Made by a program: the position numbers. A stretch of DNA of 64,000 nucleotides from assembly GCA_034669905.1 (NCBI GenBank), contig JAXMOL010000006.1, forward strand, positions 1 to 64,000, in the 5' to 3' direction. The DNA comes from Candidatus Hydrogenedentota bacterium. GTDB taxonomy: Bacteria > Hydrogenedentota > Hydrogenedentia > Hydrogenedentales > JAEUWI01. Shown piece after piece: positions 19,601-34,600 of the stretch (position 1 is its first letter; every line of letters begins with the position of its first letter).

Positions 19601-22600
19601 GAATATTTTTCGCGTGTATAAAAAGCGTGCGAACAGGGTCGCCAACAGGAGTGCGAGAATTGTCTCGGCGACACCATCGTAGGGGGTGAGCCACTGTTGG
19701 ACGGGACCTGCTACGATGCGACCGGTCAGTGCCTGGTAGGGGAGGATCCCCGCGATCAGATAGAGCACCAATGAGTTGGCGCCGATCCATACGAAGGGCA
19801 GGGCCCAGGCCCGGTACTTGCAGATGTCAATAAGGGCGTAAAAGAAGGCGAGGAAAAGACAGCTGTAGCCTCCGGCGACGAGGACATAGGAGGAGGTCCA
19901 AATACGTTTGATGACGGGGAATTGGAGGCCCCACAAAAAGCCTATGGCCACCAGTGCGATTCCGCTGCCGACGAGCAGTGCCGTCTTTCGCCACGGCGTG
20001 ACGGAACCCGCACGAATCAGCATGCCCGCGAAAAGGCCCAACAAGCAGGTTGAGATGGCGGGTACGGTACTGAGCATCCCTTCATTGCGCCAACCCTTCT
20101 CCTCCCGATCACCGGGCAGATAATGCCGATCGAGATAATTGGACCAGTTGGTATGCATGTCAAAGGTCGGCTGGCCCAGCTCTGGCACCGGAACAAAGGT
20201 CATGAGTGCCCAATAGCCAACCAGTATGGACACGCACACGACGACCAGGCCGCGTACATTAAAATTCAGATAGAGCAGGGAGGTAATCAGGTAGCAGTAG
20301 GAAATGCGCTGCAAAACGCCCGCGAAACTAATCTTTTCCTGAGCAAAGCCGCCGCTATAAATGAATGCCCAAAACCACAGGAAGGCGAAGCGGCGGAAAA
20401 TTCTGTAATAGGCGGCTTTCTTGCCTTCCGTTGTTACGGTATGCTCCAAAGAGAAAACGGTCGAAATACCGACCATGAATAAAAACAGGGGGAAGATGAG
20501 GTCGTAGAAACGAAACCCTTCCCATTCCGCATGGCTGAGCTGGTGGGCGAAAACGCCAAGTATTCCAATGGGACTGACCTTCGCCAGGGAGGCCACGAGC
20601 GCATCCGCGCCGATGATCCAGAACATATCGAAACCACGCAGGGCGTCTAACGACATGAGCCGTGGGGTGCGCTCACTGGGTGGTTTCTCCAACGAAGGGG
20701 CCGTCGTTGGGGTATCTGATCGTGGACTGTCCAATTGAGCTGCTCTCCTCGTTGAAGCACCAAGTATGAATGCGCTGGTGGGGCAATGCAAAGGGGGTAC
20801 GGAAAGCGCTTCGTGTATGAGCTTCCGCTGGACTCGGCTTCTATGACTTGTCACCACGTCGCTACGACTGTTAGTCTCACACATACTGGAGCCACGAAAG
20901 TCACCATGAAAAAGAGTGTAGCGAAACAGACCGCGATCCTTATACTTTTTCAGTTTGTATGCTTCGGCGCTGCAGCGATTGGAGGGGCATTCACCGCAAC
21001 TTCGGTCAGGACGTGGTATCTGGAAATTGCCAAGCCCACCTGGACGCCGCCCTCGTGGGTCTTCGGTCCTGTCTGGACCATCTTGTATGTCCTAATGGGC
21101 GTCTCCGCGTGGCTGGTCTGGCGTGCGGCTCCCTGGCCCAATGCACGGGTAGCACTTACGCTGTTTGGGGTGCAGTTAGTGCTTAATACGGCCTGGTCCA
21201 TTCTCTTCTTCGGTGCGCAAAATCCCGGCTTGGCGTTCCTGGAAATTCTTCTGCTCTGGTGTGCAATCGTGGCAACCATCGTCACCTTTTGGCGCCACTC
21301 CAAGACGGCATCGGTCATGCTGGCCCCCTACCTCTGCTGGAGTTCTTTCGCCGCGTTCCTGAACTACGCCATTTGGCAGATGAATTAATCTGGGCATAGA
21401 ACAGACGGACGAGCTTGGGGGACCGTCGCAGCGGCAAGGCGTCCCTATTGCGGAGTCGCCGTCCGGGGTGCGAGCAAGAAGTCGGGGCTTTCGGTTACGA
21501 GGCAGTGGATTCCCGCGCTGGCGAAAACGGGGAAATGGGTGAGCGGGAGGGCGGTGGGCACCACGGCCTCGGCGCCGACGATGGTCTCCAGGACTTCCGC
21601 TACCGCATCATTACCACCGCTGATCACGACCGCTCCTTCGGGGGATTGGACGAGGCTGGTGGCATAGGGCAGGGCGGTGTCTGGAATCCCATGGACCATG
21701 ATGCCCGCTTCATCGCAGATGCGACGAACTACCGCCATCGATTCCGCCGCGTCGAGTGGTGCGTTCAGGGGGCCTGTTCGGTATCCGGGCCCCAGTATCA
21801 GGTGGCAGGTGCCATCCGGTCCACGGACGAGGCCTGCGGCCCGGTCGATGTGGTGGTCGTGAAAAATACCCGACAGGTGACCTTCCTGATCGATGGAGCA
21901 GAAAATTCCGGCGGGTATCTCCACGACCTGCAGACCCCGGTCCCGCAGGCGGTTGAGGACCCCTTGTTCCGGTGCCTCGTTTTTCTCGGGGTGGCGAAAG
22001 ACGATGAGGGTATCTTCACTGAACAGTACCCGCCCGCCTTCGGACCAACAGCTTGGCCAGCAGGAGACGTCCCCACGGTCTCCGACACCGGGTTTGAGCC
22101 AGGTGGGACTGGTCAGGGCGATGCCGTGGGCCGGGAGGTAGACCATCAAATCCCGGGGATAGAGAAAGGTGCTCCCCTCTTCGGGAGCGTCTATTCGAAA
22201 TGCTGGATAGCGGTCGGCGCGCAGTCGATCACTGAGTTCAGACGTTGCGGTGCTGAGATTCAGAATGCGAAAGGGCATGCCTGCGCGGAGGAGTGCGTCG
22301 AGAATCGACAAATACTCCGCATCGAAGCGACGGGTAAATTGGGCTTCATCACCGCTATCCGCGAGAACCGTGCGGGCAGTATCCAGATTTCCCAACAGGA
22401 CCCCCGGCACCTGCCGATTGGCGTGTTGCAGTTTATACTCGGGGAACCCGGTCAACCACAACCGGCCCGCCTGTGTTGACGTCATATCGTGCCCCACTAC
22501 CGAACGGGTAGCTAACCGGATTACTTCTTGAGCCAGGTATTTGCCCCACCGAGATTATTGATCTTGCGGATATCCCGAATGCCGACTCGAATCCCTGTAC

Positions 22601-31600: not shown

Positions 31601-34600
31601 CACGTCTTGTGCAGTGATCGTTTCTGCTGCGGCAGGGCGGGTATGGGCGTTGGACGTGTAGTGTTCACGACAGGCTTCTCGCTCCAGATAGTCGCCAAAG
31701 GCCTCAATAGAAACACCGTGGGCATCCATCCATTCCTGGGTAGCCTGGGCGGAGCGGAGGCCGAGGTCTCTTCGAAAGGCTTCGGAACGGGCCTGCAACA
31801 GGTCGTCTGCCACCTGAAAGCCATCGGCCTGGGCCTGCGCCAGGGCGGACAAACGCTCTCGGGCCTGCAATCGCACCGAATCGAGTTGCCCCCATTCTTC
31901 TGCGGCGGCCAATACGTGTTCGGCGCAAAATACCACGCCGCCACAAGAAAATAGAGAAACACCGCTCAAGATTCACCCTGATGCCTATTGGTTGACACTG
32001 GTACGGTCTCCCGCTTCAAATAATCCCCACCCGGAAGCAAATTTGGGGGCACGCACGCCGCTTCAGGGATTATAGTCGCACATGGCGAATGAGTCAATCG
32101 CTCCCCCCTTTGTGAATAAGGGACTGTGGGGACGAAGGGGTCTGGGATTACAGGAGCTCGTGAGGCGGTAGTGGGTTGCAATCCCCGGGCGATGGGCAGG
32201 CCTTCCATCATCCGTGGCAGGTGTGTAAGCTGGTCTTGCGGGCGTGGAGTGCGCATAGATCGAATAGCGTTAGAGGAAGCTCGGATGGAGCGCGCCTGGG
32301 CGGGTAGCCGTTCTTAGAGCGCGTCTGCACCCTCAAGGCGATCCCGGTACGCTAACGTCATCATCAGCGCTTACGAAGGAACGAGGGGAATCGGGGGCGT
32401 CGCCGGAGAACGAGACGCAGATTTATTTGTTCGGGACTATGGCACAACCTGATCAGGGAGACATCACGTGGTGGAAGACAAGGAAGACCGATTTCTGGGA
32501 TGCCTGCTGGGATTGGCCGCAGGCGATGCGCTGGGTACCACCCTGGAGTTTAAGCCGCCGGGCAGTTTCACACCCATCGCCGACATGGTGGGCGGCGGAC
32601 CCTTCGAGTTGGAAGCGGGACAATGGACCGACGACACGTCGATGGCCTTGTGTCTGGCAGAGAGCCTGATAGAAACCGGGCGCTTTGACCCCGGTGATCA
32701 GATGAAACGCTATACCCAATGGCGGGAAGCAGGGCATCTTTCCAGCACCGGACACTGCTTCGACATTGGAAACACCGTTGCGAGTGCTTTGTCCCGATTC
32801 GCTGGGACCGGTGAACCCTTCAGTGGCTCGACCTCACCGAACTCCGCCGGCAACGGCTCCATCATGCGCCTGGCCCCCGTTCCCATGGCCTATGCGGATA
32901 AGCCGGCAGTGGCGATGGAGAAGTCGGCGGAGAGTTCTCGCACGACCCACGGTTGTGAAGAAGCGGTCGATGCCTGTCGTTACTTTGGCGGACTGCTTGT
33001 GGGGGCCTTGAACGGCGCGACCAGGGAGGCGTTGCTCGCTTCCCGGTACGCACCGGTAGCGGGTTATTGGGAAAGCCATAGGCTGTGCCCAAAGATTGAT
33101 GAAATCGCTGCGGGTTCCTTTAAAGAAAAGGAGCCACCCCAGATTGCGGGGACGGGGTATGTGGTGGCATCCCTCGAAGCGGCCCTGTGGGCCTTTCGTT
33201 CCAGTGCGACCTTTGAGGAGGGCGCGTTGCTCGCCGTTAATCTCGGGGACGACGCCGACACGACGGGTGCGGTATACGGACAGATCGCGGGAGCGTATTA
33301 TGGGGCACAGGGTATTCCCGATTCGTGGCGGAAGAAGCTCGCCATGGGTGACCTGATCGAGGCGTTTGCGAAGAAACTTTGTGGATGGAGAGACGAACGA
33401 CTTGATACAGGTTGAGTTAATCGTTCCCACGCTCTGCTTGGGAGTGGGGATCGCGACGCTCTGCGTCGACAGTCCGCAGCGGGCCCTTGTCGTCTTGTGT
33501 GTGCCTTGCCTCGGACAGGTGGAAAACGCGCCGTAGCGGGTGTGTTCAAGCTTCTGGTGGGGTGTTGCCGTTTGATTCGAGCGCTGCCCCGACCGTAGTG
33601 GGGGTTGAGGTCGAATTTGGGATGCTTCCTGCACTAGACTTAAGCGATTGAGCGCGCATCGAAGAAAGACTTTGGGGGTATTGGGGGATGGGGGACGTTG
33701 AAGGGCTGCTCGCCCAACTCACTTGGCTCGCAAAGGCTGATTCTTACCATCCCACACCACAGTTTGGGAGCGGAACAGAATCTTAGCGACAGAACGTCTA
33801 TTGCGAATAGCGAACTTCCCAATCGATGCACTCCGAAAAACTGCACTTGGATCTCGATAGGGTCAACGACACGGGGCGAAGCCCGCTAGAGATCGCGCAA
33901 CATACGGGCAACGAAGAAATGATTGCGCTTGTCGAAAGAATCATGAGGGAAACAGGTTGAGTTATTCCATTTCGAGATACATCATTCCGTGCGTAGTCCT
34001 GATGGCCGGGGGACTCCTGCCGTCTATTTCTGCGACCGCCCAAACGGTGGTCACCTTCCCCGACCGTGCACTCGACGGACTTGTGCGCTGGGCGTTGGAC
34101 AAGGGGCCGGAGGATGTAATCCTGGACAGCGACATGGCGGAGCTCACGGAGTTGGTGGATATATTCCCCGGTGGGGAGCGAATTCGCCACCTTGATGGTC
34201 TCGAATCTGCCTCCAATCTTACCTTGCTTGCCCTGGAGGATAATTTACTGGAAGACTTGAGCCCATTGGCCGGATTGACACAGCTTCAAGAATTGTATGT
34301 CTCCGAGAATCGCATTTCCGATTTGACGCCCCTGGCCGAGCTGACCGCACTGAGAATTGCTATCGCGAACGACAATCGAATCTCCGATATATCCCCCTTG
34401 GCGAACTTGACGGCATTGACGGTACTTAGACTCAATGAAAATGCCATCCAATATCTGGAAGGGCTCACGAACTTAGAGCAGTTGACTTATCTGGGTCTTC
34501 AGGATAATCGCGTGTCGGACGTGGGGCCCCTTGAGGGGCTTGCCCAGCTCGAGGAGGTGAACGCCGGGGACAACGAGATCGTGGACCTTGCGCCCTTGTT

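Follow-up and report, generated by a model that had tools for sequence, protein, structure and literature searches.

Introduction

Why does a member of the Hydrogenedentota encode, close to a peptide exporter, a set of very small proteins that resemble pieces of the type VI secretion tube protein Hcp and of DUF1559 prepilin-like proteins? The question arose in a 64,000-nucleotide stretch of contig JAXMOL010000006.1 (assembly GCA_034669905.1), hereafter the window. A first-pass annotation had proposed that the cores of these peptides copy the N-terminal hairpin of Hcp, that the peptides are exported and probably modified, and that they interfere with the assembly of tubes or pili. Here, we followed the peptides through this genome and its relatives and asked what their cores are made of, which genes accompany them and which explanation fits best.

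Results

The window encodes leader peptides, an exporter and two candidate modifying enzymes

At the sequence level we verified four double-glycine-leader open reading frames in the window (Table 1), each preceded by a purine-rich ribosome-binding stretch. The leaders fit the acidic type with spaced hydrophobic residues and a Gly-Gly end, and a ComC profile matched 12 of 68 family members weakly (best E 0.0029). The V-K-G-G leader end reported previously is invariant in all eight paralogues. Among the four peptides of the window, a borrowed motif is recognisable in the two mosaic peptides alone. Of the other two, the Arg-rich peptide is paired with the pentein gene in the relative locus L006 as well, while the KLLFGE peptide, present once in this genome, recurs in L006, L008-L011 and L044 and may be an alternative substrate for the Cys-rich enzyme. 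The exporter carries the Cys, His and Asp motifs of C39 peptidases and is accompanied by its HlyD adaptor, as had been noted. A tblastn search of the genome with the C39 domain returned only the domain itself, making this the sole C39 exporter found. All five other carrier genomes examined have a C39 domain too, but so do 7 of 14 control genomes. The TIGR04500-like protein holds the same position in the acidobacterial loci L022 and L027. No sensor domain was detected in the sigma-54 activator, which also adjoins the Cys-rich enzyme in relatives L006-L010 and L035. Among 14 genes scanned there was no immunity family, and bacteriocin models gave only weak matches (best E 1e-4), most likely via the leader.

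Table 1. Features of the peptide cluster (positions in the window).
Feature	Position	Strand	Evidence or remark
Pentein-fold enzyme, 346 aa (amidinotransferase/deiminase superfamily)	21445..22485	-	Structure model, pLDDT 87.8, and Foldseek
Double-glycine-leader peptide, 80 aa; core of 43 residues with 8 Arg	22521..22763	-	No recognised borrowed motif
Sigma-54 type -24/-12 promoter-like site	23140..23154	+	Pattern match, 1 mismatch
Double-glycine-type peptide, 68 aa, RVIRLDDL...GG...KLLFGE	23193..23399	+	Conserved; no recognised borrowed motif
Cys-rich enzyme, 363 aa; C-terminal RRE-fold domain 277-363	23615..24706	+	Structure model, pLDDT 90.2
Sigma-54 activator: AAA+ and Fis-type HTH, short N-terminal extension only	24729..25790	+	PF00158 E 1.4e-59, PF02954
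Sigma-54 type -24/-12 promoter-like site	25925..25939	+	Perfect match; 140 nt upstream of first mosaic peptide
Mosaic peptide, 57 aa: leader, GG, Planctomycete-type DUF1559 motif LLLPAVQxxREAAR	26065..26238	+	
Mosaic peptide, 74 aa: leader, GG, three Hcp first-strand motifs, gp19 tube motif DVTLKRG	26285..26509	+	
HlyD-type periplasmic adaptor	26691..27887	-	PF13437, TIGR01843 E 4.5e-36
Peptidase-containing ABC exporter: two cNMP-binding, C39 peptidase, ABC membrane and ATPase domains	27891..31010	-	
PpiC/SurA-related putative peptide maturation protein	30989..31969	-	TIGR04500 E 6e-13, below cut-off

Motif-bearing peptides are dispersed, rare and probably directed to export

A profile search found eight motif-bearing peptides in this genome, spread over five contigs. 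We ran the motif patterns on a six-frame set of 160,772 open reading frames. The Hcp-type pattern gave eight matches in six frames, namely five peptides (on C3, C38, the window's contig C6 with three matches and C47 with two) and the genome's true Hcp on C9; LLPA[VLI]Q matched just twice, on C6 and C28. The second copy on C38 is degenerate. A tandem array is broken across the ends of C47 and C38, its gene order being intact in relative L026. A paralogue of the Cys-rich enzyme (44% identical) adjoins the C3 peptide, again as annotated. In a database profile search we counted 125 representatives at E<=1e-3 where 151 had been reported from another alignment. The family is rare, with 18 and 14 stretches recovered among 185,579 species genomes by strict patterns. 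Apart from Hcp and weak matches to the leader, the peptides fall under no Pfam or NCBIfam family, and no published description of such peptides was found in the literature searched.

The motifs are not confined to double-glycine leaders. They also occur behind Nif11 and NHLP/Frankia leaders and in signal-peptide proteins (8 of 14 longer non-leader matches, judged by eye), within a 1,400-residue VWA protein, and as tandem arrays of up to 15 copies in longer proteins. All carrier kinds together span six phyla, and by their predicted leaders and signal peptides the motif carriers are export-directed.

Peptide cores are mosaics of conservation peaks

To define the content of the cores, we compared 197 related ones (median length 34 residues). 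Profile matching showed that they read as shuffled mosaics of conservation peaks from four regions of Hcp, the phage/eCIS tube protein gp19, DUF1559 and EF-Tu, each element copying 8-16 residues from where these unrelated, abundant bacterial proteins are most conserved. The counts behind this statement are not independent events because the profiles are small and the cores related, and those for the first motif are biased because the family was collected by it: with an Hcp profile of 21 sequences, 67 of 194 tails behind the first motif exceeded the 99% shuffled level where ~2 were expected, and 33 of the 67 mapped to positions 61-69, 99-104 and 121-128, which are conservation peaks far from the first strand; the gp19 profile matched 11 of 197 cores, 9 of them at two peaks; and the DUF1559 profile matched 26 of 194 tails, 9 of which follow an Hcp motif. 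Two donor families are combined in 27 of 197 cores, as scored with motif classes written after the data had been seen. Many tails match none of the four donor families tested. The gp19 motif that ends the 74-residue window peptide is an addition to the earlier finding. The cores are therefore not simply copies of the Hcp N-terminal hairpin, since they also hold material from other Hcp regions, gp19, DUF1559 and EF-Tu.

The copies are not members of the donor families. The peptides lack a full-length Hcp/TssD domain (PF05638, ~160 residues), those in the window have no Pfam Hcp match, and in place of the N-terminal prepilin cleavage/methylation motif and ~270-residue domain of DUF1559 (PF07596) they have a double-glycine leader and short segments. 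They hold 8-30 residues of each donor (Hcp/TssD; gp19, PF06841; DUF1559, PF07596 and TIGR04294; EF-Tu), cannot form its fold and lie outside the donor gene clusters.

Codon comparisons show the amino-acid sequence of the motif copies to be under selection, as judged from substitution patterns. In an acidobacterial member, for which EF-Tu accounted for all 58 of 58 PDB matches, 16 of 16 residues agree with the EF-Tu of the host, while the DNA differs by 8 silent base changes. Similarly, repeats 1 and 2 of the 74-residue window peptide differ over 10 codons by 7 silent and 0 amino-acid changes. Across the family, dN/dS was 0.056 for the first motif (biased, again because the family was collected by that motif), 0.14 for the leader, 0.18 for second motifs and 0.28 for linkers; the second-motif value, based on 89 codons and 12 pairs, is just modestly below that of the linkers. 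The annotated class of leader-bearing peptides that copy Hcp and DUF1559 thus stands in that the copies are closer than chance and their amino acids selected, and export is probable.

Several motif versions are foreign to the carrier

Comparison with the carriers' proteomes showed that several of the copied versions appear to be absent from them. We found no gp19 in this genome (control, 30 of 81). The LPAVQ form of the DUF1559 motif occurs in 21 of 22 Planctomycete proteins, whereas the genome's own DUF1559 proteins read LPAL.RAR in 47 of 47 cases, and none of the five other carriers, one with a complete chromosome, has DUF1559 proteins. Of 10 genomes reached from the loci, 9 of which lie outside the window's phylum, just 3 have a full-length Hcp. 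Most of the genomes in these comparisons are incomplete. Within the phylum, Hcp was matched in each of the 10 carrier genomes, in one of them just partially. The motifs are not all foreign: the first strand of the genome's own Hcp is as near the consensus (22.9) as the peptides are (median 21.5), and the EF-Tu motif is identical to the host's own.

The Cys-rich and pentein-fold proteins are candidate modifying enzymes

The C-terminal domain of the Cys-rich enzyme adopts, in the model, an RRE fold (best Z 8.2, rmsd 2.8, 81 residues aligned), and although Z values of 7-8 can be ordinary on their own, RiPP proteins account for 11 of the 14 best structural matches. Its gene lies beside precursor genes, and leader binding is predicted. 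The fold is that of the RRE-dependent enzymes TigE, MibB, MccB, PbtF and TbiB1, but the candidate catalytic domain differs: this N-terminal, metal-cluster-like domain had no solved relative in the structure searches run. Five Cys are invariant and three nearly so in 120 homologues. Similarity to YkgJ/CxxCxxCC proteins is just weak (PF03692 in 7 of 120 homologues, best E 0.0026; Atlas lead 0.82 to YkgJ); PF03692 includes the flagellin lysine methylase FliB. Enzyme and peptides co-occur in exactly 10 of the phylum's 135 genomes, and the enzyme was not found in any of five carriers from other phyla. The suggestion that the peptides are probably modified therefore holds at best in this lineage, where all 10 carrier genomes have the enzyme.

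The pentein-fold protein belongs to no Pfam or NCBIfam family. Its model gave 80 PDB matches at E<=0.001, every one of those listed being a pentein, with agmatine deiminase (E 7.6e-7) and DDAH as best matches. P110-R111-D112 and H212-I213-D214 are invariant and C328 is present in at least 90% of 18 homologues; the Asp, His and Cys residues among them are the putative catalytic ones. By its modelled fold, the protein is a candidate arginine-modifying enzyme for the adjoining Arg-rich peptide.

Peptide genes share a sigma-54 promoter motif

A -24/-12 consensus pattern placed a site no more than 400 nt away from 14 of 31 peptide genes, compared to 25 of 1,050 background genes. With a relaxed pattern, written after the data had been seen, the numbers were 22 of 31 and 35 of 1,725. 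These counts show a putative sigma-54 promoter motif shared among peptide genes, and most of the eight motif-bearing peptides of this genome lie behind one.

Discussion

In export the peptides resemble known systems. Like ComC/ComA and NHLP/Nif11 systems (TIGR03796, TIGR01847), they combine a V-K-G-G leader, one C39 exporter with HlyD, numerous dispersed precursors and a TIGR04500-like protein; they differ from double-glycine-leader/PCAT systems in cores that are mosaics copied from unrelated proteins. RaxX of Xanthomonas, in the outline given in PMC8872720, is a double-glycine-leader precursor that is cut and secreted by a peptidase exporter, modified by a neighbouring enzyme and active as a molecular mimic. 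Leader and proposed mimicry are alike, with export and modification predicted here. RaxX, however, is described there as a tyrosine-sulfated mimic of one plant hormone, whereas the present peptides draw combinatorially on many bacterial proteins. We considered a sulfated mimic of the RaxX type and rejected it, as the 14 window genes scanned include no sulfotransferase family and the copied sequences are bacterial. A second likeness is to flg22, elf18 and csp22, summarised in PMC6770897 as conserved fragments of flagellin, EF-Tu and cold-shock proteins, each a short peptide that plants read as a sequence-specific signal. As outlined there, plant receptors perceive those after their release from the actual proteins; the present segments have dedicated genes, and the EF-Tu segment is internal and distinct from elf18.

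We favour, at a probability of about 45%, the view that these small peptides form a sigma-54 regulon and are exported as mimics of signature peptides conserved in bacteria, to be read outside the cell as a decoy or an alarm. The cluster's activator would switch the dispersed genes on together, and the single C39 exporter would cut the leader and secrete the cores with HlyD, possibly, in this lineage, after their modification by the RRE-bearing Cys-rich enzyme. Outside, the cores would engage a sequence-specific reader whose normal role is to sense pieces of the donor proteins as a sign of nearby, attacking or lysed bacteria; it could be, for example, a receptor in another microbe, in a predator or in kin of the producer. 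The peptides would then serve as a decoy, a false alarm or an in-group alarm. Near-exact copies of 8-16 residues are kept in six phyla and four carrier kinds, and therefore something must read the motifs closely. A bolder version, which we regard as possible but tentative, is that bacteria recognise other bacteria by peptide patterns, namely short conserved segments of injection tubes, pilins and EF-Tu, and that gene-encoded, shuffled multi-epitope mimics evolved in several phyla to trigger or blind this recognition. No receptor gene was conserved beside the peptides at the loci compared; Ser/Thr kinases flank three acidobacterial arrays, and such kinases are common in acidobacteria.

Alternatively, the motifs could be substrates or docking sites for protein-modifying chemistry such as lysine methylation, the product being a modified RiPP whose resemblances mirror the enzyme's natural targets. 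The exact co-occurrence of Cys-rich enzyme and peptides, a homologue of the protein lysine methyltransferases PKMT1/2 (E 9.6e-21) adjoining a peptide in an alphaproteobacterial locus and Lys in 195 of 197 cores agree with this. Yet the enzyme was not found in the five carriers from other phyla, several arrays have no modifying enzyme nearby, the EF-Tu, GYTEVEWTY and GDGSV motifs lack Lys, and the enzyme may serve the KLLFGE peptide instead, so that we find this unlikely. That the peptides are decoy substrates soaking up competitors' extracellular proteases or modifying toxins, whose targets would be conserved sites in abundant proteins, is rather unlikely: arrays of up to 15 motif copies would suit titration and consensus-like sequences broad enzymes, but the copied motifs, which are strand and helix elements, share no obvious cleavage or modification chemistry, and neither toxin nor immunity genes are conserved around the peptide genes at the loci compared.

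The blocking of assembly, with the cores capping or jamming pili or the tubes of Hcp and eCIS through strand complementation, is quite unlikely, even though most of the copied proteins form tubes or filaments and some cores run on as Hcp for ~30 residues and pass the Pfam Hcp cut-off. The interference proposed earlier supposed one copied element; the motifs come, shuffled, from four Hcp regions, from the N- to the C-terminus of DUF1559 and from gp19 and EF-Tu, and a ribosomal S14 motif belongs to the same vocabulary as the EF-Tu motif. In addition, Hcp assembles in the cytoplasm, and the carriers are export-directed, some being large signal-peptide proteins, for which entry into the cytoplasm of another cell is improbable. 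Self-regulation, in which the peptides would adjust, or signal the state of, the type VI system or pili of the cell that makes them, we consider very unlikely. Within the family of the window bacterium, 10 genomes have peptides and Hcp, 1 has Hcp only and 4 have neither, but these kin are not independent, and 7 of the 10 locus-derived genomes lack full-length Hcp, the five other carriers lack DUF1559 and this genome lacks gp19, most of these genomes being incomplete. Strongly disfavoured is the view that the cores have no sequence-specific function and are either scraps of captured genes or low-complexity strands that arose by convergence behind a leader. Some copies do decay, such as the last on C38, and the family is rare, but the silent changes in the EF-Tu copy and between the window repeats, the fall of matches on conservation peaks and the shared promoters all speak against it.

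For the biology of these bacteria, the export machinery is ordinary and the cargo principle is the new part, and our data hint that bacteria imitate one another's molecular signatures in a manner not described before. The cluster also offers two candidate new peptide-modifying enzymes, the Cys-rich RRE protein and the pentein beside the Arg-rich precursor. Cultured carriers exist in Sphingopyxis and Parasphingopyxis. Should the motifs be read by a receptor of bacteria or protists, the peptides would identify the ligands of that receptor, and the sensing by microbes of conserved proteins from other bacteria would become testable; if the pattern-recognition reading is true, the motif vocabulary would be a ligand list for receptor discovery.

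Genomic setting and extent of the peptide family

The window forms the beginning of contig C6 in a genome of 7.44 Mb that is 96% complete, and the genes of its peptide cluster (Table) are 44-86% identical in named relatives, which are Candidatus Hydrogenedentota. The cluster exporter contributes the sole C39 domain detected in the genome. An Rfam scan matched one tRNA only, and thus gave no sign of an RNA element underlying the mosaics. A type VI secretion cluster is also encoded in this genome; all of its genes but Hcp were assigned by eye. As for the TIGR04500-like protein, PMC8939145 names TIGR04500 among graspetide neighbours, as a bare listing.

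The first-pass annotation had singled out the peptides with two motif patterns, and both were borne out in a six-frame set of 160,772 ORFs: five peptides plus the real Hcp matched the Hcp-type pattern, and two peptides the LLPAVQ one. A profile search of the genome yielded eight motif-bearing peptides, on C3, C6, C28, C38 and C47; the C47/C38 array is split by the assembly and stands unbroken, with two copies, in a relative. With the eight-peptide alignment as query, 193 proteins scored at E<=0.01 among 1,297 candidates (120 among the matches listed) and 125 representatives at E<=1e-3. Strict degenerate DNA patterns, applied to a collection of species-level genomes, matched 18 and 14 stretches. 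Double-glycine-leader peptides are present in Hydrogenedentota, Acidobacteriota, Alphaproteobacteria and Myxococcota, and in Planctomycetota, Verrucomicrobia and Lysobacterales the motifs lie within larger proteins. Viral contigs held no match to the strict Hcp-type pattern, and neither Pfam nor NCBIfam had a family covering the peptides.

Table. Positions of the cluster genes and of features in other loci
Feature	Location	Strand	Remarks
tRNA	Window 19338-19411		Opposite flank of cluster; Rfam
Cluster	Window 21445-31969		Pentein-fold gene, four double-glycine-leader peptides, Cys-rich protein, sigma-54 activator, HlyD, cNMP-C39-ABC exporter, TIGR04500-like protein
Pentein	Window 21445-22485	-	
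Arg-rich peptide	Window 22521-22763	-	
Pentein/Arg-rich pair	Window 21445-22763	-	
Pentein/Arg-rich pair	L006 395-1715		
KLLFGE peptide	Window 23193-23399	+	Also in L006, L008-L011, L044
Cys-rich enzyme	Window 23615-24706	+	
Sigma-54 activator	Window 24729-25790	+	
Mosaic peptide	Window 26065-26238	+	
Mosaic peptide	Window 26285-26509	+	
Cluster border	Window 32468-36665	+	ADP-ribosylglycohydrolase, LRR/TSP3 surface protein
Type VI secretion cluster	L005 (G000:C9:36000-55999)		Hcp, TssE/F/G, VgrG, TssK/L/M-like genes
Acidobacterial Cys-rich enzyme cluster	L014 3035-10519		B12 radical-SAM enzyme, methyltransferase, HlyD, PPIase
PKMT-like methyltransferase	L021 4249-5640	-	Class I, adjoins peptides
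Methyltransferase	L018 6520-7749	+	Class I, adjoins peptides
Ser/Thr kinase	L029 918-3893		Flanks acidobacterial array
Ser/Thr kinase	L033 2938-5904		Flanks acidobacterial array
Ser/Thr kinase	L194 436-2694		Flanks acidobacterial array
Larger protein	L184 3417-7616	+	DUF1559 and Hcp motifs
Larger protein	L183 4991-5569	-	DUF1559 motif
Tail motifs without donor	L025 5935-6123		
Tail motifs without donor	L032 1590-1778		
Tail motifs without donor	L008 11355-11534		

Composition of the cores

From 218 collected proteins, those of <=115 residues with a double-glycine site gave 197 distinct cores with a median length of 34 residues. The Hcp first-strand motif opens 120 of them and the DUF1559 motif 62, counts that are circular because the same motifs served as search query; the real test is the tail behind the first motif. 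Against an Hcp profile of 21 sequences, 67 of 194 tails exceeded the 99% level of shuffled tails. Thirteen of these repeat the first motif, 21 run on as Hcp positions 16-24, and 33, the genome's own C47/C38 peptides among them, jump to positions 61-69, 99-104 or 121-128, which are conservation peaks of the profile. Compared with 23 gp19-like tubes, 11/197 cores passed, seven at the TLKRG strand, two at the FKVEI strand and two probably by chance. Compared with 22 Planctomycete DUF1559 proteins, 26/194 tails passed, at positions 18-20, 36-43, 174-177 and 244-256, and nine of these stand behind an Hcp motif. Two family members, P0143 and P0214, join Hcp to a DUF1559 C-terminal motif, with Pfam and NCBIfam agreeing, and one acidobacterial peptide joins an Hcp motif to an EF-Tu segment, for which 58 of 58 PDB matches were EF-Tu or EF-Tu fusions. 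By hand-written motif classes, two families are mixed in 27/197 cores and none is found in 9/197. When cores were compared by nine-mers with ORFs of the window's genome, the signal was weak overall (71 ORFs vs 25-45 for shuffles) and informative for DUF1559 and EF-Tu only.

Longer family matches chain the same motifs with others, including MopE and FG-GAP motifs and a VgrG-like stretch. In P0122, which is 745 aa long, bears a signal peptide and comes from a set of eukaryote transcripts, numerous Hcp motifs are combined with a ribosomal S14 motif and a part resembling gp19. Two larger proteins, unrelated and each with an apparent signal peptide, also contain the DUF1559 motif (L183, L184). Recurring tail motifs for which no donor was found here are GWGSSxYQY, DGxSYER, FPKVE and HPQY.

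Provenance of the motifs

Judged by comparison with the carriers' own proteins, the copied motifs are mixed, part self and part foreign. No gp19 was found in the window's genome with a model that finds it in 30 of 81 Myxococcota. The genome's own DUF1559-type proteins read LPAL.RAR in 47 of 47, whereas Planctomycete ones read LPAVQ in 21 of 22, as do the peptides, and five carriers of LLLPAVQ peptides, one of them a complete chromosome, lack a DUF1559 protein. Full-length Hcp was found in three of ten genomes reached via loci; the G143 match is to the peptide itself. Speaking against a foreign origin, each of the ten carrier genomes from the window's own phylum contains an Hcp match, although in one the match is only partial. 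The first strand of the genome's own Hcp is as consensus-like as the peptides, but its region 124-133 is not (14.8 vs 21.6). EF-Tu is a universal protein, which counts against a foreign reading of its motif. The EF-Tu segment agrees with host EF-Tu at 16/16 residues with eight silent differences in one genome, and at 15/16 in another, which means that the segment was not freshly copied as DNA; recent capture from the host gene is rejected, as half of the third positions differ.

Candidate modifying enzymes

Of 8,000 candidates scored, 356 proved homologous to the Cys-rich protein at E<=0.001; the predicted fold of this protein is confident. Its C-terminal end is an RRE-type domain, while in the N-terminal domain five cysteines are invariant and similarity to PF03692 is weak. 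In these searches no solved structure matched the N-terminal domain, Foldseek with the whole model gave no match at E<=0.001, and PDB sequence searches with the Cys-rich and pentein proteins returned nothing clear. Term searches of the main texts of PMC12710340 and PMC7470986 gave no match to YkgJ/PF03692; their supplements could list the enzyme. A Cys-rich RRE enzyme also lies in an acidobacterial cluster (L014), indicating that it serves other RiPP-like loci. In its place, the alphaproteobacterial locus L021 carries a PKMT-like lysine methyltransferase, homologous to protein lysine methyltransferases of rickettsiae, and an NHLP-type exporter; a class I methyltransferase likewise adjoins peptides in L018.

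The pentein gene adjoins an Arg-rich precursor, plausibly a second enzyme-peptide pair. The Arg-rich double-glycine peptide stands immediately upstream of the pentein-fold enzyme here and in L006, and the two form a candidate RiPP pair whose enzyme would be a peptidyl-arginine deiminase or an amidinotransferase; 18 homologues were found.

Regulation

Four sigma-54-type sites lie in the window, which is chance level for its whole length, and two are directly before peptide genes. Across Hydrogenedentota, a site with <=1 mismatch lies <=400 nt from 14/31 peptide genes vs 25/1,050 other genes; a looser pattern, composed afterwards, gave 22/31 vs 35/1,725. Peptide genes without a site are mostly later array members, except the C3 peptide. 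We infer that the cluster's sigma-54 activator drives the peptide genes. It has no recognisable sensor domain; speculatively, control might come from a separate protein or the exporter's cNMP domains. The conserved KLLFGE peptide is single copy, has its own sigma-54 site and travels with the cluster. It could be a regulator; alternatively, it could be the peptide on which the Cys-rich enzyme really acts.

Possible roles of the peptides

Window peptide repeats 1 and 2 differ by seven silent and no amino-acid changes in 10 codons, and over 12 gene pairs dN/dS was highest in linkers (0.28), followed by second motifs (0.18) and the leader (0.14); the 0.056 of the first motif is biased by the way genes were collected. 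That the peptides have no function is highly improbable. It is unlikely that the motifs are enzyme substrates. The Cys-rich enzyme and the peptides occur in the same 10/135 genomes of the phylum, but the enzyme was found in 0/5 carriers from other phyla, so modification is not general. Slightly less probable are peptides acting as enzyme decoys, and slightly less again assembly poisons. Self-regulation is more doubtful than any of these three. One structural role cannot account for near-exact strand and helix motifs copied from unrelated proteins, which call for a sequence-sensitive reader. Because all carrier types are export-directed, an extracellular location is most likely for that reader. 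Three acidobacterial arrays are flanked by Ser/Thr kinases that contain beta-propeller or TPR domains, candidate readers whose position may be due to chance.

The motifs come from proteins that are abundant and conserved. By the same logic flg22, elf18 and csp22 are recognised by plants (PMC6770897), and RaxX illustrates that a double-glycine-leader peptide can be a mimic (PMC8872720). The literature, as covered outside subscription papers and supplements, held no description of these peptides or motifs; the export route is of a known kind, with a cargo design for which no counterpart was found. A sequence-specific reader outside the cell would most likely see linear fragments. Such a reader, the abundant donors and the plant and RaxX precedents favour, with a probability of roughly 45% and ahead of all rivals, a reading in which the peptides would be putative mimics of conserved bacterial signature peptides, serving as decoy or alarm.
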